Shown here piece by piece: positions 8,289 through 63,888 of a stretch of DNA of 64,000 nt (positions are counted from its first letter, which is position 1; each line of letters begins with the position of its first letter). A model generated the notes under the pieces. It had not been told where the DNA came from. It saw only the letters and a program-made list of their open reading frames with translations, and made no database searches. Location: contig CAYVXD010000004.1 of assembly GCA_964454265.1 (NCBI GenBank), positions 2,409 to 66,408 on the forward strand. Direction: 5' to 3'. Source of the DNA: an uncultured Candidatus Sumerlaeota bacterium. GTDB taxonomy: Bacteria; Sumerlaeota; Sumerlaeia; MWCT01; JAUWMI01. Position numbers and translations under genes: made by a program.

Positions 8289-8378
8289 TGGCGGAGAGGG
8301 AGGGATTCGAACCCTCGGGGCAGTTCCCCACCCACACGCTCTCCAGGCGTGCTCCTTCAACCACTCGGACACCTCTCC
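8289..8378 (-). tRNA. tRNA-Ser (anticodon GGA)
   Basis: Reverse complement folds as a 90-nt cloverleaf: acceptor GGAGAGG/CCTCTCC, anticodon stem CACGC/GCGTG with loop CTGGAGA, long variable arm, T-arm GAGGG-TTCGAAT-CCCTC, discriminator G, encoded CCA. Confidence 0.85.
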
Positions 8379-19455: not shown

Positions 19456-20673
19456 CTAGTGGGACACCATTTCCACCATTTTGAACAAGGGCATGAACAT
19501 TGAGATGACGATGAATCCAACAACCACCCCAAGAAACACAATCAGGAGAGGTTCTATCATGGACGTAAGGCCAGCCACTGACGCATTAACCTGATCTTCG
19601 TAAAAATCGGCAATCTTTGTCAACATACTTTCTAACGCGCCTGTCCGTTCGCCAACGTCAATCATGCGCGTTACCATGGGTGGAAACACCTGCGAGTCAA
19701 CTAAAGGCTTCGTGATACTTTCCCCACCCTGAATACTCGTTCGAGTCCGATACAGGGCCTCTTCAATCACAGCGTTGCCCGAAGTCTTCGCGACGATTTC
19801 AAGTGCATAGAGAATATTTACGCCTGCCCGGATAAGGGTGCCCAGCGTACGGGTGAATTTGGCAATAGCTGCCTTGAGTATCAGCGGTCCAAATATTGGA
19901 ATCTTTAATTTGACTGCATCAATTTTCGCGCGACCTGTCTTGGTTTTCCCCCATTGCCACAGCCCTATGCAGCAACCTCCGAGAATCAGCCCTACTACTA
20001 GCCAGTTCTCCTTGACCAACTTGCTTAATCCGACGGTAATTCGCGTCGGGAGCGGAAGCTCTCCACCGAGATCTACGAAAATGTTCTCGAACACAGGGAC
20101 AACTTTGACCAGCAAGAAGGTAGTTATGAGCAGAGCAACACTGGAGACCACCGCTGGATACATAGTCGCCGACTTAATCTTGCGTTGGATCGAAACCAGT
20201 TTCTCTAAGTAAAGGGCCACCTGATCCAAAATAGTATCCAGCATGCCGCTCGCTTCTCCCGCTTTTATCATACTGATAAAGAAGGGGCTGAAAACCTTTG
20301 GGTGCTTTTGAATGGCTTCGGTCAATGACGAGCCGCCCTCGATATCCCGTTCAATCTCCCGCAGGATATCTCTGAACACCTTCTTTTCCACCTGTTCGGC
20401 AAGGATGTCAATTACCTCAATCAAGGGAAGGCCTGCGCGAATCATGGTTGCCATCTGTCGGCTGAAAATGACGAGGTCGTCAAGCTTTACCCGACCGCGG
20501 CGCCCAGCTTTCTTGCGCGCGACCTGTGCCCCAGCGCTCGCTTGTTGGATAGTCGTGGGTATTAGGCCTTGGTCGCGAAGCATCTTGACCACCGCCGACT
20601 GAGTCGAGGCTTCAGTTGAACCGGTGACTGTTTTCCCCTGAGGACTTCGGGCAACATACTGATAGAATGGCAT
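19456..20673 (-). CDS. type II secretion / type IV pilus platform protein (GspF/PilC/MshG family)
   Basis: 405 aa with two T2SSF domains and three TM segments. 25 bp downstream of the ATPase gene. Confidence 0.85.
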   Translation of the reverse strand: MPFYQYVARSPQGKTVTGSTEASTQSAVVKMLRDQGLIPTTIQQASAGAQVARKKAGRRGRVKLDDLVIFSRQMATMIRAGLPLIEVIDILAEQVEKKVFRDILREIERDIEGGSSLTEAIQKHPKVFSPFFISMIKAGEASGMLDTILDQVALYLEKLVSIQRKIKSATMYPAVVSSVALLITTFLLVKVVPVFENIFVDLGGELPLPTRITVGLSKLVKENWLVVGLILGGCCIGLWQWGKTKTGRAKIDAVKLKIPIFGPLILKAAIAKFTRTLGTLIRAGVNILYALEIVAKTSGNAVIEEALYRTRTSIQGGESITKPLVDSQVFPPMVTRMIDVGERTGALESMLTKIADFYEDQVNASVAGLTSMIEPLLIVFLGVVVGFIVISMFMPLFKMVEMVSH

Positions 20674-20697
20674 CGGATCCTCCTGTCAACGTTAAAC

Positions 20698-34626: not shown

Positions 34627-36048
34627 TTGAACGCCTCGGTCTCCCGATTGCTCCATAAGCTCCTCCTCGTTCACGTGGCGCTCCTACTGTTTTTAACGCC
34701 ACTTTTCCTTTTGCCTCGTCTGGCGACATACAATCCTGTTATTGATTCCAAGAAGCTGATTGCATTCTTTCTCTTGTGCTCCTTTTTCATTTTCTATTGC
34801 ATCCGTATTGTGGTTGCGGGCATTCCGCGCTTTCAGGTGTCGCTGGTGAACGTATCGGCAGGACTGTTGCTAGTGTCTGTGATAATTGCATGTGTGGCGT
34901 CAGGAAACGTGATCTATTGCTTTCAAGAGGCGTTGATTTCCATCTTCCTGCTGGGATTGTTCTTTGTGCTTCAACCGCTCCTGACAGGGCATCAGGAGAT
35001 TAAAAAGTTGCAACTGGTGGCGATACTGGCTGCTGTCCTCGTCAGCATATACGGCTTGCTTCAGTATTTCAATCTGAACGTGCTAGCCGGCGCGTTTCCT
35101 TACGTGCGTCCGAGCAAAGAGAGCCGGAACTTTATTCTATCAACCATCGGCAATCCTGAGTACCTGGGCGGCTACCTGGCGCCATTTGCCGTTATGTTGA
35201 TTCCGCAGCTGCTGGCGCATCGCAAAGTAATGGCCCGCTTCCTCAGGGCTTTAGGGTTTGTCCTGTTTGCATTCGTGATGCTTCTGACGGGTGCGCGCGG
35301 CGCATGGCTCGGGATGCTTGGCGGCGCTCTGTTTGTTGCATATTGGATAGTGCGCTGGAAGCCGTTGCGTATTTCGCCACGCGCTGGCTGGATTTCGGTG
35401 ATTTTAGGAGCGATAGTGGTTTTGCTGCTGGTTGTCTTTTCGTTTCCTAATCCAATTAATACGCGCGACGCACGGGTAATGGGTCGCTTCAAGGAGCTGG
35501 CTGATCCGAGATCAGAATCCATCAAACAGCGCATTCTGTTTTATGCAATCTGTGCTGAGATGGTTGGCGACCGTCCGATTGTGGGTTTTGGCGAGGGCAT
35601 GTTTCAGGTTAACTTCTACGAGTACGTGAAGCGGCTCGTTGAGAAAGATGAACGAGCGGGTATGACACTATTTGCGATTGATCTGGAAAACCGTGTGGCT
35701 GAGCATGCGCATAATGATTATTTGCAATTTTGGGTCGAGCGTGGCAGTATGGGGCTTTTCCTCTTTGTCCTGTTGCTGCTGGCGTACTTTTTCGCGGTGA
35801 ACGGTCAGCTGCGTACTGCTCATTGCGGCAGCGCAGTCTGGCTCCTGCAGCTGAGTCTGAGCGGTGCTATCGTCTGCCTGTTGATTAGCAGCACGTTTAG
35901 CTTTCCCCTGCATTTGCCTACTCGAGCGTCGCTCTTCTGGATTCTGCTTTCTATGAGTGTATGTTTAGCATTTCCGGCTTCTCGAAATGATGCTACAGGC
36001 AGAGATGCCTGTGCTACCGATGCAAGGCCGCGAGGCGATGAGGCGTAG
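34627..36048 (+). CDS. O-antigen ligase / Wzy_C-domain polytopic membrane protein
   Basis: 473 aa and about 10-12 TM helices. A periplasmic loop carries the HAHNDYLQ...ERG signature of the O-antigen ligase family. Confidence 0.7.
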   Translation: MNASVSRLLHKLLLVHVALLLFLTPLFLLPRLATYNPVIDSKKLIAFFLLCSFFIFYCIRIVVAGIPRFQVSLVNVSAGLLLVSVIIACVASGNVIYCFQEALISIFLLGLFFVLQPLLTGHQEIKKLQLVAILAAVLVSIYGLLQYFNLNVLAGAFPYVRPSKESRNFILSTIGNPEYLGGYLAPFAVMLIPQLLAHRKVMARFLRALGFVLFAFVMLLTGARGAWLGMLGGALFVAYWIVRWKPLRISPRAGWISVILGAIVVLLLVVFSFPNPINTRDARVMGRFKELADPRSESIKQRILFYAICAEMVGDRPIVGFGEGMFQVNFYEYVKRLVEKDERAGMTLFAIDLENRVAEHAHNDYLQFWVERGSMGLFLFVLLLLAYFFAVNGQLRTAHCGSAVWLLQLSLSGAIVCLLISSTFSFPLHLPTRASLFWILLSMSVCLAFPASRNDATGRDACATDARPRGDEA

Positions 36049-36050
36049 CT

Positions 36051-37202
36051 GTGAAAGTTCTTTTTCTTCTGAACGCCTATGAGGAAGACGGACCTGGATT
36101 GTTGATCTTTTCAATTATTCAAGAAATGCAACGCTCTGGCGCAGTTGCATGTTCCACTGTGGCACTGTCGAGAGGAGGGCCGCTGCAAGAGCGATTTGAC
36201 GCGCTCGGAGTACCTACAGCCGTGGTGGGGATGAAAAGCGTTTGTGACATTGCAGCGATCGGGCGATTTATTCGGCATCTAAAACAGGAGCGCTGCAGCG
36301 TGCTTCATACAAATCTCATCCGGGCCGATCTGATTGGTCGGATGGCGGCCAAGCTGGCCGGGGTTCCTCTTATCGTGACTACGGAGCACGGCATTCACAC
36401 GTGGGATGTGAAAGGTCGGGTTGTGAAATGGTTGGTGCGTCTCTTGTATCGTTTGACAACGCGGTTTACCGATCGGATTATTGCGGTCTCCGAGTTTGTA
36501 GCACAGGATCTCAGGCGTAATGGCATCTCCGATGTGAAGATCACACGCATCTATAACGGGATTGATACTGATCCGTACCATCCGCTGCCAGAGGAGCAAC
36601 GGCGTGAGCTTTGCCCATACCTGGCAGACTGGGAGGTGCAGCATCTGGTCGGGGTTATAGGCAATATGGTGGCGCTGAAGGGACACGCCTGGTGTGTTCA
36701 GGCGATTCCTGCGATTGTCGCGCAGCACCCTGACACGCTCTTTGTCTTCGTTGGCAAAGGACCGCTGCGTCAGGAGATCCAGCAAATGGTGAGCTCTCTT
36801 GGCCTTGAGAAGCATGTGCGGTTCACGGGGCATCTGTCGGCATTGTTGCCACGGCTCATGGGATCGCTTGACGTGCTGGTTCAGCCGAGTCTGGTAGAAT
36901 CGTTCGGATTGGCAGTTGTGGAAGCTCAGGCATGTGGGGTGCCGGTAGTTGCCACAAGAGTAGGAGGATTGCCCGAGATTGTTGTTGATGGTGAAACCGG
37001 GTTTTTGGTGACATCAGAAGATCCTGAGGCACTGGCAGACAAGGTCAATGTGCTCCTGAGCGAGCCTGTGCTTGCGCGAAGTATGGGTAGAAGGGGACGG
37101 GAGAAAGTCCTGGCCCAGTTTCAGATTCAGCAGACAGCCAGTGCTTATGCGGAGCTTTATCGAAAGTTGGCTAGGGAAAAAGCCATAGACAGCGAATCAT
37201 GA
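36051..37202 (+). CDS. glycosyltransferase family 4
   Basis: 383 aa. QPSLVESFGLAVVEAQACGVPVVATRVGGLPE motif. Confidence 0.8.
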   Translation: MKVLFLLNAYEEDGPGLLIFSIIQEMQRSGAVACSTVALSRGGPLQERFDALGVPTAVVGMKSVCDIAAIGRFIRHLKQERCSVLHTNLIRADLIGRMAAKLAGVPLIVTTEHGIHTWDVKGRVVKWLVRLLYRLTTRFTDRIIAVSEFVAQDLRRNGISDVKITRIYNGIDTDPYHPLPEEQRRELCPYLADWEVQHLVGVIGNMVALKGHAWCVQAIPAIVAQHPDTLFVFVGKGPLRQEIQQMVSSLGLEKHVRFTGHLSALLPRLMGSLDVLVQPSLVESFGLAVVEAQACGVPVVATRVGGLPEIVVDGETGFLVTSEDPEALADKVNVLLSEPVLARSMGRRGREKVLAQFQIQQTASAYAELYRKLAREKAIDSES

Positions 37203-37222
37203 ATGCCAGGGATTCATAACTA

Positions 37223-38221
37223 GTGGCAGACTATCAGGTGCACAGCATTCAGGAGCGACATTATCGTCTGTGGGATGACTTTGTTGCTGCTTCGCCGCAG
37301 GGATGTTTCTACCACACCAGCTGCTGGAAACAGATCATTGATACCGGGACAACGTATACCATGCGTTTGTACGGATGTTTCCTTGGTGGCACGCTTGTGG
37401 GCGGCTGTACACTGACTGAGAAGGTTCAGCTGGGCCGTCATGCAGCGGTAAACGCCTTGACCACGCCGTATGCCGGGTTTCTGCTGCCGTCTACTTCGGG
37501 GACGAAGATTTCCGATCAAACCTCCCACGAGCACGCAATTCTCTCTGCTTTGAGTCGCTTTCTCGAAGCGCGGTTTCATCAGATTACGCTGTACAATTCG
37601 CCGGGACTGGCAGACGTGCGGCCGCTGACGCAGAGCGGCTGGAGCGCGGTGCCGTGTTATACGTATGTGCTGGATATCAGCGAGCCGAGGCGAGTGTGGG
37701 AACGTATGGATGGAAGCGTGCGACAGGCAATTCGAAAAGCCGTGAAACAGCAGTTTCATGTTGGTACGTCCACAGATGTGGATAGCTTTTATGGTCTCCT
37801 GGACAAGACACTTGGCAGGCGCCGCTTGCCAAATTTGATTCCCAGACGCCTGCTTGATACATTGATGCACACCGACAGTCTGAAAGATCGTCGGTTCTTA
37901 CTCACAGCGCAGCCCAAGAGCGGAGGACTTGCGAGCGGCATCCTGGTGCTGTGGGATCAGACCACTGCCTACTACGCGCTTGCTGCCACTGACCCTGCTC
38001 TGTACGGTAGCGGTGTCCACTCGCTCTTGATCTGGGAGCTGATTCAGCGTCTTTCACCGGTTGTTGGGATACTGGATTTTGTTGGTGCGAATATTCCCAG
38101 CATTGCACGATTTAAAGAAGGGTTCAACCCACAGCTCGAGACCCATTATTGTGTTGAGAAATGGCGATCCCTTCTATTGAAATGGAGCAAACGGCTGGTT
38201 CGTCGCCTCCGGGGTTATTGA
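37223..38221 (+). CDS. FemAB-like / BioF2-like GNAT-fold acyl- or aminoacyl-transferase
   Basis: 332 aa with a bipartite GNAT-like organisation (YHTSCWKQII ... ILVLWDQTTAYYALAATD). No exact family can be confirmed from sequence alone. Confidence 0.45.
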   Translation: MADYQVHSIQERHYRLWDDFVAASPQGCFYHTSCWKQIIDTGTTYTMRLYGCFLGGTLVGGCTLTEKVQLGRHAAVNALTTPYAGFLLPSTSGTKISDQTSHEHAILSALSRFLEARFHQITLYNSPGLADVRPLTQSGWSAVPCYTYVLDISEPRRVWERMDGSVRQAIRKAVKQQFHVGTSTDVDSFYGLLDKTLGRRRLPNLIPRRLLDTLMHTDSLKDRRFLLTAQPKSGGLASGILVLWDQTTAYYALAATDPALYGSGVHSLLIWELIQRLSPVVGILDFVGANIPSIARFKEGFNPQLETHYCVEKWRSLLLKWSKRLVRRLRGY

Positions 38222-38383
38222 AGTAGAAAAATTCCTGGCAATTCCCTGGTGCAATGGTGTATGAAGCTGCGCGCGATGCACGCCAAAGACCAGCTGTGAT
38301 AAACTGAACCCCTTTTTCATGGGGGAGAAAAGACTCATCGTGCGTATTGTCTTGAGACTCTTTCTACAAATGAGGCTGCACTC

Positions 38384-39160
38384 ATGAAGATTCATCCGAC
38401 GGCAATTGTCAGCCCAAAGGCACAGCTGGATACGACAGTGGAAGTTGGCCCATACGCGATAGTTGAGGAGAACGTAAAGATCGGAGCGCGAACAATAGTA
38501 ATGGCGCACGCCTACATTAGCGGATGGACGGAGATTGGCGAGGATAACCGAATTCACATCGGGGCTGTGATTGGTCATGTTCCGCAATACATTGCGTTCA
38601 AGGGCCAGAGGTCTTATGTCCGGATCGGCAACGGGAATACGATTCGCGAGTATGTGACGATCCACCGCTCGATTGAAGAGGAGCATGCTACGGTGATTGG
38701 TGATCGGAATTTTCTCATGGCCATGAGCCATGTGGCGCATGACTGCGTATTGGGAAATGAAATAATACTTGCGAACTCAGTGTTGCTCGCCGGCCATGTA
38801 GCCATTCAGGACAAGGTGATGATTTCAGGCAGTAGTGGGGTGCATCAGTATGTGCGGGTAGGAAGGATTGCCATGGTTTCCGGCCTGACGCGCGTAGTCA
38901 AAGACGTTCCACCGTTCATGATAGTCGAGGGCGAATCCACGGTGCGCGGGTTGAATGTTATCGGGATGCGGCGTGCGAATATTCCACCAGAGAATCGCGA
39001 GGCAGTGAAGCGCGCATATCGGCTTCTCTACCGGAGCGGGCTAAACTTACCGCATGCGCTGGAGGCCATTCAGTCGGAACCCATATGCGAGGAAGTCCGG
39101 CTGATTGTCGAGTTCGTGCAGCAGTCGCAGCGGGGGATTTGCAAGCACTATGTTAAATAA
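38384..39160 (+). CDS. acyl-ACP--UDP-GlcNAc O-acyltransferase-like enzyme (LpxA family, left-handed beta-helix)
   Basis: 258 aa. Hexapeptide repeats, the LpxA-type MKIHPTAIVSPKAQL N-terminus and a C-terminal helical domain. No lpxC/lpxD/fabZ/lpxB are nearby. Confidence 0.7.
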   Translation: MKIHPTAIVSPKAQLDTTVEVGPYAIVEENVKIGARTIVMAHAYISGWTEIGEDNRIHIGAVIGHVPQYIAFKGQRSYVRIGNGNTIREYVTIHRSIEEEHATVIGDRNFLMAMSHVAHDCVLGNEIILANSVLLAGHVAIQDKVMISGSSGVHQYVRVGRIAMVSGLTRVVKDVPPFMIVEGESTVRGLNVIGMRRANIPPENREAVKRAYRLLYRSGLNLPHALEAIQSEPICEEVRLIVEFVQQSQRGICKHYVK

Positions 39161-39232
39161 ATGGGTAGCCAAGTAGCGCACTTTAGCGGCTTGTGGTGCA
39201 AGACCGGCAGCTTCCGGCTGAAAGCCTAGTCC

Positions 39233-40231
39233 GTGGATTTCCCCATTTTCGATTCTGACATGGAAGAGACTGAACAGACGTCACTTGTTTCCGTCATTAT
39301 AGTGAATTGGAATACGTATGCAGAGCTCCGGCTGTGTCTTGAGGCCTTGCGTGGCCAGCAGGTAATTCCGCTTGAGATTATCGTGGTGGATAATAACTCT
39401 TCGAATGGTAGTGCCCGGAACTTGCCACATGAGTTTCCGTCAGTCCGCCTGATTGCTAATCGAGAGAATCTCGGCTTCGCAGAGGGATGCAATCAGGGTT
39501 TGCGCATTAGCCAGGGGCACTACATGCTCTTGCTTAACCCAGACACAGTTCCGAATCCCGATGCAATCAAGGCAATGGCTCGGTTCCTTGAGACGAATCA
39601 ATCGGCTGGAGCTGTGGGGTGTCAACTCGTTTTGCCTGATGGGACAGCGCAGATTACCTATAGCGCGTTACCGAATTTCCGGACCTACCTGGTGCTGCAT
39701 TCCCTCTTGAGTCCGATGATAAGGAAAATGCGAAGAATTGCACGTGCGGTACGCCAGGGGCTTGGCATTCGTGAACGCATGGCTGGGCCCAGGGAAGTTG
39801 GCTGGCTGATGGGCGCATGCATGATGGTGCGGCGGAAGATGGTTGATCAGGTGGGCCTGTTGGACAGCGAGTTCTTTATGTATTGTGAAGATACGGATTG
39901 GTGCAAGCGCATGCACGACCACGGATGGCAGATATTTTATCTTCCGTCGGCTTCGATTGCACACTTGCATCAGCGCAGTAGCCGACAACGGAAATTTGCC
40001 ACACTCGTCCAGCTCTATACATCGCTTCGCAGATATTATCTGAAGCACAAATCTGGTAATGCTTTGCTAGTGCTGACAGTGCTGGTGACCGTTGATATGA
40101 TATCTCGTCTTGTTTTGCTAGCACTCGCGAGAGTGGTCACGTTTGACCAGAGCGATGTGAATCGAGAGCGGCATCGTGCTGTGCGGGAAATCCTCAGGCT
40201 CTATTGGCATCCCCGGAGCTCAGACCGATGA
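39233..40231 (+). CDS. glycosyltransferase family 2
   Basis: VSVIIVNWNT...IIVVDNNSSNGS and DxD motifs. An alternative start is 39260. Confidence 0.8.
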   Translation: MDFPIFDSDMEETEQTSLVSVIIVNWNTYAELRLCLEALRGQQVIPLEIIVVDNNSSNGSARNLPHEFPSVRLIANRENLGFAEGCNQGLRISQGHYMLLLNPDTVPNPDAIKAMARFLETNQSAGAVGCQLVLPDGTAQITYSALPNFRTYLVLHSLLSPMIRKMRRIARAVRQGLGIRERMAGPREVGWLMGACMMVRRKMVDQVGLLDSEFFMYCEDTDWCKRMHDHGWQIFYLPSASIAHLHQRSSRQRKFATLVQLYTSLRRYYLKHKSGNALLVLTVLVTVDMISRLVLLALARVVTFDQSDVNRERHRAVREILRLYWHPRSSDR

Positions 40232-41355
40232 AGATCGCGCTGAATGCGCTTCAGGTGCGAGCTGCGAAAAGCGGAGTCGGCCACTACATCGCCTGCCTGC
40301 TTGAGGCGCTACTGGAAATTGATTCGACCAATTCGTATTTGGTCTTTGCCAGCCCCTATAATTATCTTAACTACCAATTCTGCTCGCCGGGCTATCAGCT
40401 CGAAATCTGGGGCAGCCGGTCCAAAAGCAAGACGGTGCGATTACTCTATGAATATGCTTTTCTCCCTTGTTCGGTGAGGAAGCGCGAGGTGGATCTATTT
40501 CACGGCCCATCTAATCTGCTTCCGTTACGCAAAGTCGCGCCGTATGTTCTCACAATTCATGACATGTCCTATTTTGTAGATCCAAAGCGTTATACGCGGA
40601 GGAAGGTCATGTACTGGCATGCGGTCACGTATCGCAGTGCTCGACTGGCAGATTACATCATTACCGACTCGGCGTATTCGAAGCAGGACATTGTAAAGTA
40701 TCTCAGCTATCCCTCAGATAGGATCAGGGTTATCCCAATGGCGGCGCACCGGCGGTTTCGCCCAATTCGTGATCGGGCTGCACTTGAGGGATTTCGAAGT
40801 CGCTATGGGCTGACGCATCCGTATATCTTGTGTGTGGGTACGTTGGAGCCTGGGAAGAATCTTGTGCGTGTGGTGCGTGCATTTGCGCGGCTGCGCGGGG
40901 CAGGAGCTGGCGACTATCACCTGTTGCTCGTTGGTGATAAGGGATGGCTCTACCATGATATTTTTGCTGAGGTACGGCGGCTTGGGTTGCAGGAGCAGGT
41001 ACGTTCGCTAGGACATATCCCGGATGACGACCTCCCGCTGGCTTATAATTGTGCTGAGATTTTTGTGTTTCCGTCGCTGAATGAAGGATTTGGCCTGCCG
41101 GTACTGGAGGCAATGGCATGTGGGGCGCCGGTGGTCACGTCAAATTGCTCGGCACTTCCTGAGGTCGCTGGTGATGCGGCCTGTCTGGTTGATCCTTACG
41201 ACGAAGCAGCCATTGCCAAAGGTATGGAAAGCGTGCTTGGCGATGTGCCGAAACGTGAGGAGCTGGTACAGAGAGGGCTAAAGCGGAGTACGGTCTTCAG
41301 CTGGAAGCGCACAGCTCGAGAAACTCTGGAAGTATATGAAGCAGTCGCTCAATAA
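40228..41355 (+). CDS. glycosyltransferase family 4
   Basis: [26 protein letters not shown] motif. Start MKIALNA at 40228 forms an ATGA overlap with the GT2 stop. The ORF track begins at 40204. Confidence 0.8.
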
Positions 41356-48587: not shown

Positions 48588-49694
48588 CTAGCGCACGAGA
48601 AAGAAGAAAAGAAAGAGGATGAATAAGGTGTAGTAGATGAATTCTGGGTATATAAAAAAACCAACCGCAATCAAGACTAGTAAAGGGGGAAACATCATCC
48701 TAACTAATGCCGGCACGGTGGTTCGTATCTCCTGTTCATACCAGTGTGCCTGGCGGTTCATCAGCTCGCTGGTGGAGGCCGAGTATTCTCCTGCCTTGAT
48801 CATGCTGAGCGCCTCGCGCTTTATGACCCCAGTCAGCGCGAGTGTATCATGAATCTTCTCGCCTGCACTTAGATAATACTCGCGTTCCAGTAATGCTTTT
48901 TCTATCGCCTTATTGTTTGTGGACTCCGCGGCAGTGCGATATGCCATATTAAGATTCATACCCGAGTCGAGAGTGATAGCGAACATCCGGAAAAATGTCG
49001 CCACAGAATAGTTGTGCATCATCGAGCCCCAGATGGGGGTTTTCAATATGATGCGATCTATTACGGTTTTGATTCTTGGCTCCCGGAGTAGCTGAGCAAG
49101 GACAAAAGCAAAAAGCAGAACGTAGAGCACGCCGCTGAAGTACCGGCCTAATACGAAAATCGCAGACGATAGTTCAAATGCCTTTTGGTCGATACTGCTA
49201 ATAATGATGCTTGTAGCGGCGAATATAAGCAGCCCTAAGAGCAAGACTACGATGGGATACCAGATGACTGAGAGGACAACGCGGCGCAATTCTAGTGCCC
49301 AGAGATGGTGCCGCGCAAGAATGTCAAGCACCGAGAGAAGCGAGCCTGATTTCTCCCCCACAACAATACTTTTTGCAAAGAAGGGCGAGAATATCCGCTG
49401 TCTGGACACGGCCTCTTCGAGTGACATTCCTTTGGCGCAATCCCGAGCCATGGCACGGCAGGCCTGCTTCAGGCGGTAGTTGCGCGAGTTCTCTTCAAGG
49501 ATAGTCAGAGTATTGATCATTGGAAAGCCGGCACTCAGCAGAGAGCGGAGCTGCAGGCAGAAGTAGTAAATGTCACGCTGGGAGGGGCCAAAAAGGCCTA
49601 GTGAGAGAAGTGCCGAGAGTTTCCGGCGTCGGCCCTTGAGATGCCTCGGCAGCACAGGTTTGCGGCGAGCAGAATTGCGAGGTGTTTGTGGCAT
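48588..49694 (-). CDS. GspF/PilC-family platform protein paralog (solitary)
   Basis: 368 aa with two T2SSF domains and an Arg-rich N-terminal extension. No ATPase, pilin or secretin genes are adjacent. Confidence 0.7.
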   Translation of the reverse strand: MPQTPRNSARRKPVLPRHLKGRRRKLSALLSLGLFGPSQRDIYYFCLQLRSLLSAGFPMINTLTILEENSRNYRLKQACRAMARDCAKGMSLEEAVSRQRIFSPFFAKSIVVGEKSGSLLSVLDILARHHLWALELRRVVLSVIWYPIVVLLLGLLIFAATSIIISSIDQKAFELSSAIFVLGRYFSGVLYVLLFAFVLAQLLREPRIKTVIDRIILKTPIWGSMMHNYSVATFFRMFAITLDSGMNLNMAYRTAAESTNNKAIEKALLEREYYLSAGEKIHDTLALTGVIKREALSMIKAGEYSASTSELMNRQAHWYEQEIRTTVPALVRMMFPPLLVLIAVGFFIYPEFIYYTLFILFLFFFLVR

Positions 49695-50593: not shown

Positions 50594-51052
50594 TCAGCCT
50601 TCTTTGATAGCCCAGTCGTAAGGGATCTCTTTTGAATGTGGATCAATGCGATGTTCGTCGGGCGCTTTGTAGTTATACAGCGTGGTTGGAATGTTGACCA
50701 CGATCCCCTCAGTCTCACCGATACACTTGAAACCATGAAGAACTAACGGAGGAATCTGCAAAAACACGGGATTATGAATGCCCATAAAGAACTCGTTAAC
50801 TTCACCGTGGGTTGGCGAATCAGGGCGGTTGTCGTAGAGCACAACTTTCATCATGCCGTGGACAACGGCAAAGTTGTCGGTCTGGCGCTTGTGGTAGTGC
50901 CATGCCTTCACGACACCAGGGTAGGCTGTAGTCATATAGACCTGCCCGAACTGGATGAAGAATTCCTGATCATCGCTGCGCAGCAGTTCCATCAGGCGAC
51001 CCCGCTCATCTGGGATCACTTTAAGGGTCTTTACCTTGACTCCCTCAATCAT
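50594..51052 (-). CDS. dTDP-4-dehydrorhamnose 3,5-epimerase-like cupin (RmlC family)
   Basis: Cupin core FIQFGQVYMT...KAWHYH. Start MIEGVK at 51052 with a GGAGGAG RBS. The ORF track extends to 51169. Confidence 0.65.
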   Translation of the reverse strand: MIEGVKVKTLKVIPDERGRLMELLRSDDQEFFIQFGQVYMTTAYPGVVKAWHYHKRQTDNFAVVHGMMKVVLYDNRPDSPTHGEVNEFFMGIHNPVFLQIPPLVLHGFKCIGETEGIVVNIPTTLYNYKAPDEHRIDPHSKEIPYDWAIKEG

Positions 51053-51165
51053 TTGTCTCCTCCTCGTTACAGTAATTTGAGTGTTGCGACTTGAATTGCT
51101 TTTAACGAGTAATGATGTGACGATCCAGCCTGACGTGAGGATATTATTGTCCTTTGCATAGCTAT

Positions 51166-52527
51166 TCAACCCAGCAAAGGGAAATCTGCAATGACTTTTT
51201 CCCGTTCTCCACTAAGCAGATGATCAACCAGTTCAACGCCCTGCATGACCGAGTGATCCATGTTACCAATTTCGTATAGCCAGAGGCCGAAGCGACCCCT
51301 GGTGTAAATCTGCTCGCGTGCCAGGAATTGCACAATAGATGCAAGAATCTGATTTCGCTCAAGCGTAGGCACAGGATAGGCATATTCGGCATCAATGAGA
51401 AAGGTCGAAACAATGTGAGAGCGGTCGGCCTCGCTCAAGAGGCCCGTGGCGATCAATCCGCGAATCGTTTCCTCGATGATCGAGGAGCGATTGACAGACT
51501 TGGATGCTGAATACGAGGTTTCACACATCAGAGAATAGTGATCCGGGCCGGGGACGTTTTCTGGTGAGTAATTGGAGAAGTATGTGACCCGATAGAATGG
51601 CGACTCCTCGCCCGGAAAGTATATCCAGCATTTGGGACTGGGACATGGTTGTGCAAGGCCGATGCCAACAATGAGAGTTCCGGTAGCGCGCAACTGCTCA
51701 GCCTGCTGAATGAGCTGCGGGTTGGCCGGATGGATGTGTGCAACTAACTCTGTCAAAGGCGTTGTGTTGATCAGAATGTCATAGTGCTCGGAGCTTCCAT
51801 CAGCATACATTGCACGTCGCTGTGCAGGTTCTACCCGTGTGAGTTTGCGATTCAGGGCCAGATGATCCCGCACAGCTGGTAGGAATGCCTGATATATTGC
51901 TCCAGTTCCGCCCGCGCGTGGGAACTTGAATGTTCTGTTTGGCCCCCAATCAATGTCGTCCAGTTGCAGAATTACATTGCGCAAGACGCGCTGGAAATCA
52001 ATAACGCTGACACGGTGGGCGATCCACTCGTGGCTCATCAGCTCCAATGGTGTTGCCCAGTTTTTTTCATTGTAAGGAAGCATGAAATGCGAAGCGATAC
52101 CATGGCCAAAGGTGCGCAGAATCCACTCGCGAAAGTTTCCCGGGGCGCCGGCATGCCTTTGATTTGTCTCCCATAGCCCATTGAGACATTCCCACAGCGC
52201 CTCTTTTGTCAAGTAGCGGAGGTTATTCTGAAATGGGTACGGCACAAAGCGATCTAGCAACCAGATCCATGAGTTTCGCACATGTTCGAGATACTGGTTG
52301 GCTAGCAGGCGATCAACCAGTCGGGTAAAGTAGTCATAGCCTGAAAAGAGAATATGGCCGCCAATGTCCCAGGTGAAGCCGCTTACATCACGAAAGCTGG
52401 CAGCCAGGCCGCCAACGTAATCATGCTGTTCCACAATTTGCCAGTTGCGATAGCCGAGCTCGGCCAGGCGATATGCAGCCCCCAGGCCTGTTGGACCAGC
52501 GCCAATGATCAGGATTTTTTTGTCCAT
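51166..52527 (-). CDS. FAD-dependent oxidoreductase, paralog of 3985..5403 (UDP-galactopyranose-mutase / amine-oxidase-like)
   Basis: ILIIGAGPTGLGAAYRL...VGGLAAS dinucleotide-binding N-terminus. C-terminal block YAYPVP...GRFGLWLYEIGNMDHS shared with the 3985..5403 paralog. The likely start is MDKK; the ORF track extends to 52602. Confidence 0.6.
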   Translation of the reverse strand: MDKKILIIGAGPTGLGAAYRLAELGYRNWQIVEQHDYVGGLAASFRDVSGFTWDIGGHILFSGYDYFTRLVDRLLANQYLEHVRNSWIWLLDRFVPYPFQNNLRYLTKEALWECLNGLWETNQRHAGAPGNFREWILRTFGHGIASHFMLPYNEKNWATPLELMSHEWIAHRVSVIDFQRVLRNVILQLDDIDWGPNRTFKFPRAGGTGAIYQAFLPAVRDHLALNRKLTRVEPAQRRAMYADGSSEHYDILINTTPLTELVAHIHPANPQLIQQAEQLRATGTLIVGIGLAQPCPSPKCWIYFPGEESPFYRVTYFSNYSPENVPGPDHYSLMCETSYSASKSVNRSSIIEETIRGLIATGLLSEADRSHIVSTFLIDAEYAYPVPTLERNQILASIVQFLAREQIYTRGRFGLWLYEIGNMDHSVMQGVELVDHLLSGEREKVIADFPLLG

Positions 52528-58229: not shown

Positions 58230-58505
58230 ATGATAAAGGCGGACATTGTGAAAAGCGTCGGCGAGGCCTTGAACATGAAAGATAAGGAAGCATTAGCCGT
58301 TGTGGATGCCATTGTTGAAAGTATGAAAGAAGTCATCATCCGTGATAAACGGCTGGAAGTGCGTGATTTTGGCGTTTTTCAAGTTAAGGAGCGTAAGCAG
58401 CGAATTGGCAGGAATCCCAAGAACAAGAAAGAATATCCAATTCCACCAAGGAAAGTTGTTACCTTTAAGTCAGGCAAGGAAGTTAAAAATCTTTCGCGTT
58501 CATAG
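58230..58505 (+). CDS. HU/IHF family DNA-binding protein
   Basis: 91 aa. MIKADIV...GFGVFQVKERKQRIGRNPKNKKEYPIPPRKVVTFKSGK beta-arm signature. Confidence 0.85.
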   Translation: MIKADIVKSVGEALNMKDKEALAVVDAIVESMKEVIIRDKRLEVRDFGVFQVKERKQRIGRNPKNKKEYPIPPRKVVTFKSGKEVKNLSRS

Positions 58506-60309
58506 CCACAGCGGACTGAGGTTTCACTGCTGTGGACGAGCTTATGACCTTCGGTGTATCCTCCTGAGGCTTCTCCTTCCAGTTTGTAAAATAGTACGCA
58601 ATAATATTCTTAGCAAGCGGGGCTGCTACGGCTCCGCCATGCCCACCTTTCTCAACGAGTACCAGGACTGCAATCTTTGGGTCGTCATAGGGCGCAAAGC
58701 CCACGAACCACGCATCTGTAGCCTCTAGGTCACGCTGGGCTGTTCCGGTTTTCCCCGCCACTTTCCAGTCGCGGAGAAACCCCGCCTTGTAGGCAGTTCC
58801 CCCTTCTTCGTTCACTGCTGCCACGAGCCCTTCCATTATAGTGCTGCGAGCCGAGTTGCTCAGGTGAATCTCGTGATACTTGGGATCGGTGAGGATCATA
58901 ACCTCGCCGCCATGTGATTCAATGCGATCCAGGAGATGGGGAGTCCAGAGCCGTCCGCCATTGGCAAACGCGCAGTAGGCATTGAGAATCTGAAGAGGAG
59001 TTGCGGCAATGCGGCCTTGACCAATACCCAACAGAATCACCTCGCCTGGGGGCAATCCGGCGGCCAGATTCAAGGGCAGATACCCCCTCACTTCTCCAGA
59101 CAGGTCAATACCAGTCAGGCTGCCAAGGCCCAGCTGGAACGCACAATCAACCAGGCGCTTTGCACCAACTGCCTCAGCCAGTTGGTAAAAATATATGTTG
59201 CAGGAATATTTAATAGCCTCCTGCATATTCACCCAGCCGTGTCCACTGGGCAGAAAGCAGGTGAACGGCTTATTCCACTGGGGCAGATAGAACTTGCCAT
59301 TGCAATAGAATTTCTTCTCGCGGCTGATCCCAGCGCGGAGCGCAGCCAGACAGGTGATCAGTTTGAACGTTGAGCCTGGGGGGTAATGTTCCTGGATCGC
59401 CTTATTCAGAAAACAGCTCCCCTCTTTGGAAAACGATCCGGGGTCATTTGGGTCAAAACCCGGAGTACTGACCATAGCCAGAATCGCTCCATTAGACGGA
59501 TCCATTACAATAATTACGCCGGAACGACCTTGTAATTGCCGATACGTATACTCTTGGAGCTTGAGATCCAGGGTCAGAAAGACGTTGTTGCCGGACTCGG
59601 GGGGGTGGCTGACATAGGCATCCCGTTTTCGTCCGCGGGCGTCTCGCCGCACAATTTCCTCGCCAGCGTGTCCCAGCAAACTCGATTCATAAATCCGCTC
59701 GATATTGACAATGCCGACAAAATCTTTGGGATCGTAGTTCTGGTCAAGAAACTGAGAGACAAGCGATTCGGGAATCATGCCCATGTGTCCTGAGATATGA
59801 CAGGTCGCTGGCCCAGCAGGATAGTAACGCTTGAAACCCTCCTCAACGATCAGTCCGGGTAAATTATACTGTTCCTCCAGTATGGGAGTGATCTCTGCCA
59901 GAGAAAGATTCTTCGCCAGAAGCACCTTCTGCCATTTTGAGTTTAAACGTCTCAGGCGATCTTCTAAGCTGATAACATCGCGGTTCAAGAGTGCCGACAG
60001 CCGGGTAAGAGTCTCATGAATCGTTTGCAGCTCTAGCTTGAAAGGGCTCACGTATACGGAGAACGTGACGCGACTGACTGCAATGGTCAGATGATTCCGA
60101 TCAAAAATGGTTCCTCGCGGTGCCTCAAGCCGTTGCGGAACCAGAAAATTATTCTCAGAAAGTTCACGGTAATATTTGCCCTGGATCAGGGTTATTGGAA
60201 AGAGGCGCAGGGCAAGTACCACGAAGCTCGCTGCTAACAGGAGGATTAGTATTTTGAAGCGTCGATGTAAGAACTGATATTCACTTGGCTTGGTCTTTTC
60301 TTTCAGCAT
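58483..60309 (-). CDS. mrdA: class B penicillin-binding protein (PBP2-like peptidoglycan D,D-transpeptidase)
   Basis: 608 aa. N-terminal TM anchor, PBP dimerisation domain and transpeptidase motifs STFK, SCN and KTGTA. The 3' end overlaps the convergent HU/IHF gene by 23 bp. No mreCD or rodA are adjacent. Confidence 0.85.
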   Translation of the reverse strand: MLKEKTKPSEYQFLHRRFKILILLLAASFVVLALRLFPITLIQGKYYRELSENNFLVPQRLEAPRGTIFDRNHLTIAVSRVTFSVYVSPFKLELQTIHETLTRLSALLNRDVISLEDRLRRLNSKWQKVLLAKNLSLAEITPILEEQYNLPGLIVEEGFKRYYPAGPATCHISGHMGMIPESLVSQFLDQNYDPKDFVGIVNIERIYESSLLGHAGEEIVRRDARGRKRDAYVSHPPESGNNVFLTLDLKLQEYTYRQLQGRSGVIIVMDPSNGAILAMVSTPGFDPNDPGSFSKEGSCFLNKAIQEHYPPGSTFKLITCLAALRAGISREKKFYCNGKFYLPQWNKPFTCFLPSGHGWVNMQEAIKYSCNIYFYQLAEAVGAKRLVDCAFQLGLGSLTGIDLSGEVRGYLPLNLAAGLPPGEVILLGIGQGRIAATPLQILNAYCAFANGGRLWTPHLLDRIESHGGEVMILTDPKYHEIHLSNSARSTIMEGLVAAVNEEGGTAYKAGFLRDWKVAGKTGTAQRDLEATDAWFVGFAPYDDPKIAVLVLVEKGGHGGAVAAPLAKNIIAYYFTNWKEKPQEDTPKVISSSTAVKPQSAVAMNAKDF

Positions 60310-60396
60310 GAAGGAACAACTTTAGGAAAGTGGCGTTGGCGAACTGCCGCCCGGTGGCGAGACAAGCGAAGGCACACGACATGCCCACTCTGGGGG

Positions 60397-61125
60397 CTAC
60401 TCTTTTCCCTCCTTTTCCCCAGGCTCTTTTGGGCTGGTTGGCCCTTCGAAAATCAAACCGTTGATTTCGTACAGGATTACTGCCCAAAGGCCCCACCCGA
60501 GCAGGGTGTAAAGAAAGATATCGAACGCGCTGAGCTTAGCAAGCCTGTTCTGGATATCGGGATTCGTGAAGAGGACATATATAATGATCGCAAGAGGTAA
60601 AAAGCAGAATATTGGAAAGGCCGTATAGTGCACCAACCGATACAGCATGGATTGCGGTCGAACTACCGCAACAGCTGCCTCACCTTTTTCTGGAGGATAT
60701 TGCTTCAAGGCCTCTTCAATATCACTGGTGCTGGCGATCGCTGGTTTGATGCGCATACCTACCAGTGTCTTGAGATTATCAAGAAGAACGAGGTCCGAGG
60801 GGTCTTCCATTGCGACAACCAGTCCGTCGCGTTCCATGCGAATAGGAACCAAATGGTGTTTCGTGGCAATGTGCCGTGGGATCAAGGTGAGCGTCAACGG
60901 TGCGATTTCCATGCCGGCGAGGGAGACGAGATCGTAGCCAAGTTGTCGTTTTAAGAAGCCCATTTTTACACTTTCTGTAATCACACCCATCTCCACCAGA
61001 ATTCGTCCCAAGGGCATATCACTTTCACGCTGCTTTTTCAGGGCTTCGTCGAGTTGCGCATTGTTGATAATCCCCTCGCGAAGCAAGATTTCTCCCACAC
61101 TTCCGGCCACTCTGTTTGGGGTCAT
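60397..61125 (-). CDS. stand-alone MshEN (T2SSE_N, c-di-GMP receptor-type) domain protein with two C-terminal TM helices
   Basis: 242 aa. Tandem 24-residue motifs SVGEILLREGIINNAQLDEALKKQ and PLGRILVEMGVITESVKMGFLKRQ with a 5-residue spacer, then the rest of the T2SSE_N fold, then helices LVHYTAFPIFCFLPLAIIIYVLF and IFLYTLLGWGLWAVILYEI. No ATPase domain. 87 bp upstream of the PBP2 gene on the same strand. Confidence 0.65.
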   Translation of the reverse strand: MTPNRVAGSVGEILLREGIINNAQLDEALKKQRESDMPLGRILVEMGVITESVKMGFLKRQLGYDLVSLAGMEIAPLTLTLIPRHIATKHHLVPIRMERDGLVVAMEDPSDLVLLDNLKTLVGMRIKPAIASTSDIEEALKQYPPEKGEAAVAVVRPQSMLYRLVHYTAFPIFCFLPLAIIIYVLFTNPDIQNRLAKLSAFDIFLYTLLGWGLWAVILYEINGLIFEGPTSPKEPGEKEGKE

Positions 61126-61555
61126 CTTTGTTTCCTCTTAATCTGGATAACAGCGTTCTCCATCGCAAGCACAGAAACGATTCTGAAAAGGTTTTCTCCT
61201 TTTATAGAAGGAAAACAGGACGAAAAATTAACATTGCAACTGAGGCATGTCAAGCAGAAACATAGTGGTAACTTTAGCTAAATTAAAGGTGTAAGATAAA
61301 GTAACGGAAAATTTATTGTCATATACGCACTGCCAGCATCTGGCAGCATTGACGCTGCAACGTATGCCATGGTGGCGTCATTTTTGCCTGGCATTAATCT
61401 CCTTGACAGCGGCTGTATTTATTCCATAATTTACCAGCATTTCTAGCGGAGCGTAGCTTGCACGATAGGTTCTCCCCTTTTCATTTGTGGGGCGAAGTTG
61501 AAGCCAGATGTTAAACATAAGGAGCTGAGCGAATTCAAGAAAAGCAGACACTAAC

Positions 61556-62398
61556 ATGAAGCAATTCAAACTGCAAAATAGTGTAGCGGAATTAAAAGAA
61601 ATCGCCAAACAGATGCGCGTTGCCATACTGAAAATGCTCCATCGCGCTGGGTCTGGTCATAGCGGCGGCTCGCTTTCATGCGTCGAGTTGATCTCTGGGC
61701 TTTACTTCTCCGAGTTACGACATGATCCCCGTAACCCAAGCTGGGAAGACCGGGACCGCTTCATAATCTCAAAAGGCCACGGTTGCCCAACTGTTTATGC
61801 GGCCCTGGCGTTTGCGGGATACTTTCCACTTACGGAGCTGGATACATTGCGAAAACTCGACAGCATTTTGCAAGGACATCCATATTCCCGGGCGACGACC
61901 GGCGTTGAAGTCTCGACGGGAAGTCTGGGACACGGGCTTGCGATGGCCAATGGAATCGCTCTGGCCGCGCGTCTCAATAAACGGAACCACCATGTGTTCT
62001 GTTTACTAGGCGATGGCGAGATTCAGGAGGGTGAGGTTTGGGAAGCTGCAATGGCTGCGGCTCACTACCGGTTAGACCGCGTGTGTGCAATTCTGGATCA
62101 CAATGGACTCCAGATTGATGGGCCAAATGATGAAATCATGAAGGTGATGCCGGTAGTGGAGAAATGGCAAGCGTTCGGGTGGCACACCATTCAGATTGAT
62201 GGACACAACTTCGACCAGATTCTTGCCGCTTACCGTGCCGCAAGGAAAGTTGTTGGAAAACCTACCATGATCGTCGCTGAGACAGTGAAAGGCAAAGGCG
62301 TTTCCTTTATGGAAAATGTAGTGGATTTCCATGGTGTAGCTCCAACGGAAGAGCAACTGGTCCGGGCGCTACAGGAAATCGAATCAAGCCAACCGTGA
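61556..62398 (+). CDS. tktA: transketolase, N-terminal (TPP-binding) subunit of a split enzyme
   Basis: 280 aa. GSGHSGGSLS and GDGE...E TPP motifs. Confidence 0.9.
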   Translation: MKQFKLQNSVAELKEIAKQMRVAILKMLHRAGSGHSGGSLSCVELISGLYFSELRHDPRNPSWEDRDRFIISKGHGCPTVYAALAFAGYFPLTELDTLRKLDSILQGHPYSRATTGVEVSTGSLGHGLAMANGIALAARLNKRNHHVFCLLGDGEIQEGEVWEAAMAAAHYRLDRVCAILDHNGLQIDGPNDEIMKVMPVVEKWQAFGWHTIQIDGHNFDQILAAYRAARKVVGKPTMIVAETVKGKGVSFMENVVDFHGVAPTEEQLVRALQEIESSQP

Positions 62399-62520
62399 GG
62401 ATGAATAATTGTGGGAGCTTAGCAAGAGTCAGCTTCTGAGGTATTACGGCATATTGATGTTGCAAATGGTGTTGTTTTGTTCTATCGAACGAACGTTCAT
62501 GCTGGCAATGGAGAAGTCTG

Positions 62521-63456
62521 ATGACGGCTGACAAGATTGCAACACGGGATGCCTATGGTGAAGTGCTGGTCGAGCTTGGGGAGCAGCATGAGGAGATTGT
62601 GGTGCTCGATGCCGACTTGTCAAAATCCACACGTACAATCAAGTTTGCCAAGCGCTTCCCCGATCGCTTTTTCAACATGGGCATAGCTGAGCAAAATATG
62701 ATGGATACGGCCTGTGGCCTTGCTGTTTCGGGCAAGACGGTATTTGCCAGTTCGTTTGCAATATTTGCATCTGGCCGCGCATGGGAACAGGTGCGGAATT
62801 CGATCTGCTATTCTCGCTACAACGTGAAGGTAGTTGCCACTCATGCAGGGATTTCGGTTGGTGAAGATGGGGTGTCGCATCAGGCCTGCGAGGATGTGGC
62901 GATTATGCGAGCCATCCCTAACATGCGCATTTTCGTGCCAGCTGACTCGGTGGAGACAAAGGCCATTATAAGGACAGTTGCGCAGGACCAGAAGCCGGCG
63001 TACGTGCGGCTAGGCCGGGCTAAGGTTCCTGTAATTTACGACGACACCTATGTCTTCTATCCTGGCAAGGCCTCTCAGCTACGCGAAGGGTCGGACGTCG
63101 CGCTCATCGCCATGGGAGCGACAGTTGTCATCGCACTTGAAGCTGCGTCACGGCTTGCCGAGGAACGGATTAGCGTCCGGGTTATTAATATGTCGACAGT
63201 TAAGCCTATTGACCGTGACGCAATTCTGGCTGCCAGCAATGAGACGCGGGCTATCGTTACTATCGAAGAACATAATGTGATTGGCGGACTCGGCTCTGCG
63301 GTGGCGGAAGTACTAGTCACACTTCCCCATCGAGTGCCGATGCGCATGATTGGATTGGAGGATACGTTTGCCCAGTCAGGCAACTATGCCGAGTTGTTCG
63401 ACCGCTACGGATTAAGTGTTCCCAACATGATCAGGGTAGTTAAAGAGATTTTATGA
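62521..63456 (+). CDS. tktB: transketolase, C-terminal (pyrimidine-binding + C-terminal domain) subunit
   Basis: 311 aa. FNMGIAEQNMM and HAGISVGEDGVSHQ motifs. Confidence 0.9.
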   Translation: MTADKIATRDAYGEVLVELGEQHEEIVVLDADLSKSTRTIKFAKRFPDRFFNMGIAEQNMMDTACGLAVSGKTVFASSFAIFASGRAWEQVRNSICYSRYNVKVVATHAGISVGEDGVSHQACEDVAIMRAIPNMRIFVPADSVETKAIIRTVAQDQKPAYVRLGRAKVPVIYDDTYVFYPGKASQLREGSDVALIAMGATVVIALEAASRLAEERISVRVINMSTVKPIDRDAILAASNETRAIVTIEEHNVIGGLGSAVAEVLVTLPHRVPMRMIGLEDTFAQSGNYAELFDRYGLSVPNMIRVVKEIL

Positions 63457-63495: not shown

Positions 63496-63888
63496 ATGAA
63501 AGCAAAAAAGAAAGTTCTGGTTATTGATGATGAGAATGATATTTTGCTCATTATAAAGAGCGCTCTTCATGAAGAAGGCTACGACGTGGTAACTGCTAAT
63601 AATGGATACGATGGCCTCGCACTGGCAGAAGATGCGTCTCCGGATTTGATTATACTGGATATTATGATGCCGGAGATGGATGGGTTTGAAGTATTACAGC
63701 AATTGAAGGAGAATGAAAAAACAGCACGAATCCCCGTAGTTATCCTTACTGGAATGTCAAGCAAAGATAAAATTCGTGAGGCTCTGGACAAGGGCATTGA
63801 CTATTATATTGTGAAGCCTTTCGAGTATCAGGATCTCGTATCAAAAGTGAAAATTGCTATTGATGATGCGGAAAGGCAGCCTTCATAG
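63496..63888 (+). CDS. single-domain response regulator (CheY-like receiver only)
   Basis: 130 aa. The DD...D...T...K receiver residues are recognisable (VLVIDDENDIL, LIILDIMMPEMDG, VVILTGM, KP). Confidence 0.85.
   Translation: MKAKKKVLVIDDENDILLIIKSALHEEGYDVVTANNGYDGLALAEDASPDLIILDIMMPEMDGFEVLQQLKENEKTARIPVVILTGMSSKDKIREALDKGIDYYIVKPFEYQDLVSKVKIAIDDAERQPS

Follow-up and report, generated by a model that had tools for sequence, protein, structure and literature searches.

A stand-alone, membrane-anchored MshEN-domain protein encoded beside PBP2 represents a phylum-restricted family in Candidatus Sumerlaeota

We analyzed a 64,000-nucleotide stretch of DNA from an uncultured Candidatus Sumerlaeota bacterium (contig CAYVXD010000004.1, positions 2,409 to 66,408 of the forward strand; hereafter, the window), and in it a gene for a 242-residue protein in which an MshEN domain is followed by two predicted transmembrane (TM) helices. 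This MshEN-hairpin gene ends shortly before a gene for penicillin-binding protein 2 (PBP2). The results showed that the protein is a stand-alone, membrane-anchored MshEN protein without an ATPase domain, and that its family, seen in a single phylum, is a variant of a known family of receptor domains marked by distinctive binding-site residues. A previous reading of the window, made from the sequence alone, had taken the protein for a receptor of cyclic di-GMP (c-di-GMP) that could pass a second-messenger signal to the neighboring enzyme. We estimate the probability that it is a second-messenger-binding membrane adaptor acting on PBP2 at roughly 35%.

The MshEN-hairpin protein contains an MshEN domain but no secretion ATPase

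The open reading frame (ORF) lies at 60397..61125 on the minus strand and starts with ATG; AAGAGGAAA, located 6-14 nt before the start codon, is a good Shine-Dalgarno site. The gene and the parts of the protein map as follows.

60397..61125, minus strand: MshEN-hairpin protein gene (ORF, 105 homologous clusters, Pfam MshEN, AlphaFold2 and Foldseek)
61030..61101, minus strand: repeat I, residues 9-32 (SVGEILLREGIINNAQLDEALKKQ); NF053729 covers residues 11-61
60943..61014, minus strand: repeat II, residues 38-61 (PLGRILVEMGVITESVKMGFLKRQ), with the family signature P38, R41 and K54 (alignment)
60682..60942, minus strand: MshEN_C/T2SSE_N1 subdomain, residues 62-148, the best-conserved part (AMEDPSD...D...K...G); PF05157; invariant M106, P109 and others; pLDDT about 90
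60568..60630, minus strand: predicted TM helix 1, residues about 166-186; Kyte-Doolittle peak 2.4; AlphaFold2 helix 160-187; P171 and L178 conserved
60451..60525, minus strand: predicted TM helix 2, residues about 201-225, motif LYxxLxWGxWxxxxxExNGL; Kyte-Doolittle peak 1.75; AlphaFold2 helix 200-226

The profile search and the structure prediction that the sequence-only reading had suggested both supported its family assignment. The Pfam MshEN profile (PF05157) matched residues 62-148 with 75.7 bits against a cut-off of 23.1, and the NCBIfam model NF053729 (c-di-GMP_motif, a 53-residue motif) matched residues 11-61 with 60.8 bits against a cut-off of 38; the NCBIfam NfrB models aligned to residues 8-153. 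The two 24-residue motifs described earlier were found at residues 9-32 and 38-61, separated by exactly five residues (RESDM), and the residue numbers of the repeats match those of Vibrio cholerae MshE.

An AlphaFold2 model of the protein, built on 104 homologues, had pLDDT values of 85-91 across residues 10-145. When the model was compared with solved structures by Foldseek, the top match was MshE with c-di-GMP (5HTL, E 1.4e-9, TM-score 0.74), followed by PilF GSPII-A and GSPII-B (9G1W, TM-score 0.78; 8PDK). The predicted architecture is that of an MshEN domain, i.e. a four-helix MshEN_N bundle and then a T2SSE_N1 alpha/beta subdomain. By profile, fold and repeat geometry, the protein thus belongs to the MshEN domain family.

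The T2SSE ATPase domain (PF00437) had no match in the protein in Pfam or NCBIfam scans, in agreement with the earlier reading, and the chain ends at residue 242, after the hairpin. Thus, the protein is not a secretion ATPase, and this identity was ruled out. The Pfam scan detected no TM2 domain (PF05154) in the window protein.

The membrane hairpin and the MshEN domain form one unit

The MshEN domain and the hairpin are connected by a linker of about 15 residues. That a T2SSE_N fold precedes two TM helices, as had been read from the sequence, was consistent with the PF05157 match, the AlphaFold2 helices and the Kyte-Doolittle peaks. Since the MshEN domain must be cytoplasmic, the two helices should form a hairpin with the loop of about 14 residues outside. 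Five residues of the second helix region, W211, G212, W214, E220 and G223, are each at least 90% conserved within the family.

When residues 150-242 were compared by phmmer with 1.84 billion representatives, 35 hits were obtained, mostly of family length with a C-terminal match, and a Pfam scan of ten of them placed an MshEN domain ahead of the hairpin in seven. As the hits were few and mostly family-like, the hairpin is not a promiscuous module; judged by these searches, it is almost exclusive to the MshEN-hairpin family, and domain and hairpin are one evolutionary unit.

The family is found in Sumerlaeota

A homologue search covering 5.8 billion proteins gave 105 homologous clusters, nearly all of 225-350 residues and matching over the full length, including the hairpin. 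The named members were all from Candidatus Sumerlaeota (BRC1) or from an unclassified 'bacterium'. An exact look-up of the window protein itself among public assemblies had no match. One locus (L001, on contig JAUWMI010000018.1 of a Sumerlaeota metagenome-assembled genome, MAG) encodes a protein 95% identical to that of the window and is syntenic across 20 kb, and an extra C-terminal TM2 domain (PF05154, 'NINE protein') was present in 41 of the 104 relatives.

The closest homologues of the soluble domain, and its paralogues, were PilB N-termini. With the N-terminal part of the PilB encoded in the window (20698..22455) the domain shares 38% identity, and the family profile scored 142 bits on Myxococcus xanthus PilB and also matched the N-terminal domains of PilF. 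The similarity to such termini is the only point in favor of a chance ORF, or of a pseudogene left over from the start of a pilB gene. Against this stand the full-length conservation, hairpin included, in more than 100 clusters and down to about 31% identity, the good Shine-Dalgarno sequence and the confident fold prediction. The probability of this explanation is negligible, and it was rejected because the family is conserved together with its hairpin.

The MAG Zod_Metabat.321 carries two paralogues of the family (L005 and L009, with 49% and 45% identity to the protein of the window). Neither of them adjoins PBP2, and L009 comes after a DnaJ-like gene and a DnaK gene.

The binding site is a variant that may or may not accept c-di-GMP

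The sequence-only reading had quoted the MshEN consensus for both repeats. The repeat geometry agreed with it; position 1 (S in repeat I, P in repeat II) and residue 54 (K, position 17 of repeat II) departed from the consensus (R/K/L)LGxxhhxxGhhxxxxLxxxLxxQ. The motif arginines that it had named are absent, as both consensus arginines are replaced (S9, P38), of which the P at position 1 of repeat II is allowed by the relaxed motif.

The window protein keeps V10, G11, L25, L29, Q32, L39, G40, L58 and Q61, where V10 aligns with a leucine in MshE. Mutating these nine positions in MshE lowered the affinity 9- to 72-fold or abolished binding (PMC5013675, Suppl. Table 1). In the 104-member family alignment, Q32 was kept in 95 members and G11 in 81 of the 92 members without a gap there. 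Position 9 was N, T or S and never R, and position 38 was S or P. The loss of these arginines is not disqualifying, since PilF GSPII-B, with K and L at repeat position 1, binds c-di-GMP at 6 nM, and PilF GSPII-C, with Pro at the start of repeat II, still binds it (PMC11731258).

Two basic residues set the family apart. Position 41 is R in 81 of the 104 members, and T, D or E in other MshEN domains. Position 54 is K or R in all 104, whereas of 114 MshEN domains from other phyla, fetched by the same scans, 113 have a hydrophobic residue there. In MshE, L54 contributes to a leucine triangle stacked against the second guanine, Gua2 (PMC5013675). The change is coordinated and strict, with R38 and L54 lost and R41 and K/R54 gained, and on the alignment it looks more like a remodelled site than decay; the strictly kept basic residues beside the Gua2 pocket suggest a remodelled anion or guanine site.

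Several results weigh against c-di-GMP as the ligand. The invariably basic position 54 is itself one of them. G40 is kept in the window protein and replaced by M, V, L or I in all 41 TM2-bearing relatives, a position where G40I in MshE caused a 72-fold loss of affinity (PMC5013675, Suppl. Table 1). In a control, the proven non-binder PilF GSPII-A passed NF053729 with 52.5 bits (the binder GSPII-B scored 61.1), so a match to this profile alone is no evidence of binding; putting consensus residues back into GSPII-A did not restore its binding (PMC12002112). Pfam scans of approximately 50 window ORFs found no GGDEF, EAL or HD-GYP gene, and Rfam scans of the window found no c-di-GMP riboswitch or leader RNA, the sole match being a tRNA (8292..8378). 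GGDEF or EAL genes were also not found in 0.6-1.9 Mb of family loci by regular expressions and by tblastn with GGDEF- and EAL-like sequences, a search that had no positive control and carries no weight.

These results raise the possibility that the MshEN domain no longer binds c-di-GMP and is a degenerate or retuned membrane scaffold that uses no second messenger, whatever its partner. The missing arginines, the family-wide K/R54 and the loss of G40 in 41 of 104 members would fit, and the changes that distinguish the non-binder XpsE from MshE include substitutions at these sites (R38G, G40L, L54H; PMC5013675). The family profile also scored highest on the non-binding PilF GSPII-A (72.5 bits, vs 36.5 and 57.4 for the binders), and NF053729 does not separate binders from non-binders. 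On the other side are the nine mutagenesis-backed residues kept in the window protein, the retention of Q32 and G11 across the family, the strictly basic positions 41 and 54, and the nanomolar affinity of Arg-free, Pro-containing PilF motifs. We consider a non-binding scaffold slightly less likely than the PBP2 adaptor. Taken together, the comparisons make c-di-GMP binding by the window protein plausible, at about even odds.

The gene is followed by PBP2 in a presumed two-gene operon

The sequence-only reading placed the end of the gene 87 bp before a PBP gene on the same strand. The coordinates and the TIGR03423 score of the second gene agree with this. The pair and its flanking regions are arranged as follows.

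58483..60309, minus strand: PBP2 (class B transpeptidase, MrdA type), 608 aa, downstream gene (TIGR03423, Pfam, motifs)
60310..60396, minus strand: 87-nt spacer between the MshEN-hairpin gene and PBP2, presumed to be transcribed through
61126..61555, no strand assigned: divergent intergenic region between the MshEN-hairpin gene and a split transketolase, presumed promoter region

The downstream protein scored 501.5 bits with TIGR03423 (pbp2_mrdA; cut-off 455), and contains the PBP_dimer and Transpeptidase domains, the STFK, SCN and KTG motifs and an N-terminal TM segment. It is a genuine PBP2/MrdA.

A pattern scan of the spacer found no terminator-like or promoter-like site on the gene strand. 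The spacer RNA is unstructured, its fold being no more stable than those of shuffled sequences (z = +1.87), and the spacer sequence is conserved in L001 and L002. The genes that flank the pair, an HU-like gene and the split transketolase, lie on the opposite strand, leaving an isolated two-gene unit. The divergent region contains promoter-like sites on both strands (minus, 61322..61293; plus, 61403..61430), and no Rfam match was found in it. The common strand, the 87-nt gap, the lack of a terminator- or promoter-like site, the unstructured spacer and the opposite orientation of the flanking genes suggest that the MshEN-hairpin gene and PBP2 are very probably co-transcribed. PBP2 and the HU-like gene (58230..58505, plus strand) are convergent, and their 3' ends share 23 nt (58483..58505).

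The earlier reading had also remarked that this PBP gene has no mreCD or rodA neighbors. No mreB, mreC, mreD or rodA was indeed found in Pfam scans of about 50 window ORFs, or near any family locus, where the MreB search matched only the DnaK of L009. This turned out to be nothing special, as unpaired PBP2 genes of Sumerlaeota likewise have no mreCD or rodA neighbors.

The pairing with PBP2 is old but kept in a minority of loci

To judge the conservation of the pair, which the earlier reading had proposed to check in related genomes, about 50 family loci were collected from genome and metagenome collections and by exact look-ups. In 11 of them, the next gene downstream is PBP2 (the window, L001, L002, L172, L161, L164, L165, L167, L168, L018 and L104; L168 came from a search starting at PBP2). 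The paired loci represent about six diverged lineages of Sumerlaeota, and the distance between the two genes is 16-87 bp. The MshEN protein is 84-95% identical to that of the window in L001, L002 and L172, 53-54% in L161 and L165, about 51-53% in L164 and 36-38% in the deep-branching L018 and L104; the identity of PBP2 among paired loci falls to 33-40%. Since the adjacency has been kept through deep divergence in about six lineages, it points to an old operon, and the pairing is probably ancestral.

The pairing proved to be partial. About 37 of the approximately 48 family loci with enough downstream sequence do not have it, a point against the adaptor reading; any coupling is therefore dispensable. 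Fifteen loci form a clade in which NAD kinase, and after it a TPR protein, is encoded downstream of the MshEN-hairpin gene. TM2-type members have downstream either a GDSL-like hydrolase, or a 680-aa protein and then a 285-aa membrane protein (Lgt-like by eye); in L166, FabF is downstream. A second point on the same side is that PBP2 in the NAD-kinase clade has its own place, directly after dxs-tlyA (for the two arrangements in this clade: L162, 9161..11758; L170, 3166..5746; L003, 10001..11700). The genes tlyA and nadK form a widespread pair. Both new junctions would arise from one inversion that separated the hairpin gene from PBP2 at one breakpoint and split tlyA from nadK at the other. In the DNA fetched for the paired lineages, tlyA and nadK were not present.

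Physical contact between the MshEN-hairpin protein and PBP2 is hypothetical, which also counts against the adaptor reading. When PBP2 N-termini from paired and unpaired lineages were compared for a pairing-specific tail motif, their differences followed phylogeny.

A REC protein or a pilus or secretion platform as a possible partner

The second gene context that recurs in the family involves a receiver (REC) domain protein. In the window it includes the following features.

63496..63888, plus strand: REC-only response regulator, 130 aa (Pfam Response_reg, 106.8 bits)
61556..63456: split transketolase pair, between the REC-only gene and the MshEN-hairpin gene

Orthologues of the REC-only protein (66-73% identical) are encoded 274-316 bp upstream, divergently, in 15 loci (including L003, L004, L006, L081-L090 and L094). 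In the window lineage (the window, L001, L002 and L172), the two transketolase genes lie between the REC gene and the MshEN-hairpin gene. Same-strand upstream REC-domain genes were found in L161, L166 and L017, encoding proteins of 227 aa, 662 aa with two REC stretches, and 406 aa (PP2C-like by eye), respectively. With these 22 loci, a REC-domain gene is the commonest neighbor of the family, and MshEN-REC fusions are on record (PMC5013675, Suppl. Table 4). Judged by gene context, the case for input from a phosphorelay, or for a REC partner, is therefore no weaker than the case for PBP2.

The protein might thus be a membrane-tethered adaptor whose true partner is the REC protein, or a type IV pilus or type II secretion platform, with the PBP2 adjacency inherited and passive. 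This would agree with the frequency of REC neighbors, with the MshEN-REC fusions and with PilB N-termini being the nearest homologues of the soluble domain. The N1-like subdomain of GspE and PilB usually docks on the pilus or secretion platform; the fold matches include solved complexes (2BH1, 4PHT, 7LKO) in which GspL is bound to the N1 subdomain and PilZ to the N-terminus of PilB. The window itself contains pilB-pilC and a lone T2SSF gene, and the PBP2 pairing has been lost in most lineages. However, no pil or gsp gene adjoins the family in the examined loci, save for pilin-like genes situated two genes downstream in three loci. The REC neighbors show four architectures and two orientations, and the PBP2 adjacency at 16-87 bp recurs over a depth of divergence beyond that of usual random synteny. 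We regard this alternative, like the non-binding scaffold, as slightly less likely than the PBP2 adaptor.

Other genes of the window and its relatives

The window's PilB (585 aa, 20698..22455) has a T2SSE domain (487 bits) and an MshEN domain of its own, and is followed by PilC/T2SSF (19456..22455 for the two genes, minus strand). The repeats of this PilB are off-consensus: KLGEMLVKDR has R for the second Gly, and repeat II starts with S. The lone T2SSF (PilC/GspF-like) gene (48588..49694, minus strand) has no adjacent ATPase and lies about 11 kb from the MshEN-hairpin gene; a 294-aa ORF with no Pfam match overlaps it on the opposite strand.

In L172 (84% identical relative), a lytic transglycosylase with an SLT domain and TPR repeats (143..1486, minus strand) is encoded about 6.5 kb upstream of the MshEN-hairpin gene. 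This position corresponds to a site beyond the window end, and the protein is another peptidoglycan enzyme nearby. Two polysaccharide clusters are present in the window, one with GT4 glycosyltransferases and a Bac_transf priming enzyme (9027..12632, plus strand), the other with a Wzy_C polymerase/ligase-like gene, GT2 and GT4 genes and an LpxA-like acyltransferase (34627..41355, plus strand). In a 191-aa ORF (50594..51169, minus strand), matches to dTDP_sugar_isom (40-186) and Polysacc_synt_C (54-172) overlap, an odd combination that may reflect a mis-called frame or start.

Comparison with known systems

MshE of V. cholerae (5HTL; PMC5013675) resembles the window protein in its fold, repeat numbering, five-residue spacer, N1-like subdomain and the nine kept residues. 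It differs in having the T2SSE ATPase where the window protein has the hairpin, and in the residues R9, R38, D41 and L54, which are S, P, R and K in the window protein, whose ligand binding is putative. PilF of Thermus thermophilus (PMC11731258, PMC12002112) shares the fold, and repeat II starts with Pro in GSPII-C and with Leu in GSPII-B, the latter also having 'LGRILV' as in the window protein; the PilF domains, however, sit within a soluble hexameric ATPase. GSPII-A has a near-consensus repeat I and yet is a non-binder, which shows that binding cannot be read from the sequence by itself.

Functionally, the closest parallel is NfrB of Escherichia coli, a c-di-GMP-activated glycosyltransferase with a C-terminal MshEN domain (PMC8669469). 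In both cases, an MshEN domain is located at the inner membrane beside an envelope-polymer enzyme. The NfrB domain and its multi-pass glycosyltransferase are one polypeptide (fusion in cis), whereas here the domain is part of a separate hairpin-anchored protein, and the candidate enzyme, PBP2, is encoded by a separate gene that adjoins it in some lineages only.

Fusions of MshEN_N with Peptidase_M23 are also listed (PMC5013675, Suppl. Table 4). Together with the MshEN-REC fusions, they are precedents that tie MshEN to peptidoglycan-active proteins and to receiver domains. They differ in being sequence-predicted and in coming from cyanobacteria, Deltaproteobacteria and Deinococcus-Thermus, and none has a hairpin or a penicillin-binding protein.

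MreC/MreD and RodZ are small membrane regulators of PBP2. Their likeness to the MshEN-hairpin protein is a conceptual analogy only, i.e. a small inner-membrane protein beside the PBP2 gene with possible modulation of the elongasome, and there is no similarity in sequence or fold. Literature searches retrieved no described c-di-GMP receptor that acts directly on a penicillin-binding protein, and a literature search on c-di-GMP in Sumerlaeota found nothing.

Proposed function and its meaning

c-di-GMP affects cell shape and envelope polymers. In the adaptor reading, the cytoplasmic MshEN domain, tethered to the inner membrane by its C-terminal hairpin, would be a signalling adaptor. Its ligand would be a cyclic dinucleotide containing guanine, c-di-GMP being the likeliest, and the site a variant two-repeat motif that has lost the arginine lids and has basic residues at positions 41 and 54. 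In PilF GSPII-B, ligand binding reorients the subdomains (PMC11731258); by analogy, a ligand on the four-helix bundle may turn the N1-like subdomain, and the reorientation could alter the contacts of the hairpin or of the N1 surface with a membrane partner.

In the window lineage, this partner would most likely be the co-transcribed, single-pass PBP2, whose juxtamembrane HRRFK sequence and the TM segment after it could lie against the conserved E220/N222 end of the hairpin. As a result, cross-linking of elongation-type peptidoglycan, or its placement, might be tuned, and the CheY-like REC protein encoded nearby may supply a second signal. A link between a second messenger and cell-wall synthesis is thus possible. 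The two main alternatives, another partner and a non-binding scaffold, overlap with this reading and with each other.

A more far-reaching proposal can be made, in which an adaptor gated by a second messenger, and possibly by REC, binds PBP2 at its TM or juxtamembrane region and turns transpeptidation by the elongasome on or off or directs it to a location. The coupling would be ancestral in Sumerlaeota, with a remodelled site (R41/K54 in place of R38/L54) and perhaps a changed nucleotide specificity. We regard this version as speculative and rather improbable.

If the domain does not bind, the family would be one more case in which a match to a motif or a hidden Markov model over-predicts receptors, and the result with GSPII-A indicates that annotation based on NF053729 can over-call c-di-GMP receptors. 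Whatever the role of PBP2, the family offers a natural experiment in changing the MshEN site, as the invariant K/R54 and R41 replace near-universal residues, and the identity of its ligand would extend or limit the sequence rules by which c-di-GMP receptors are predicted in genomes. If the adaptor reading is true, the protein would connect a second messenger directly, at the post-translational level, with the cross-linking of peptidoglycan, and this in a phylum without a cultured model.

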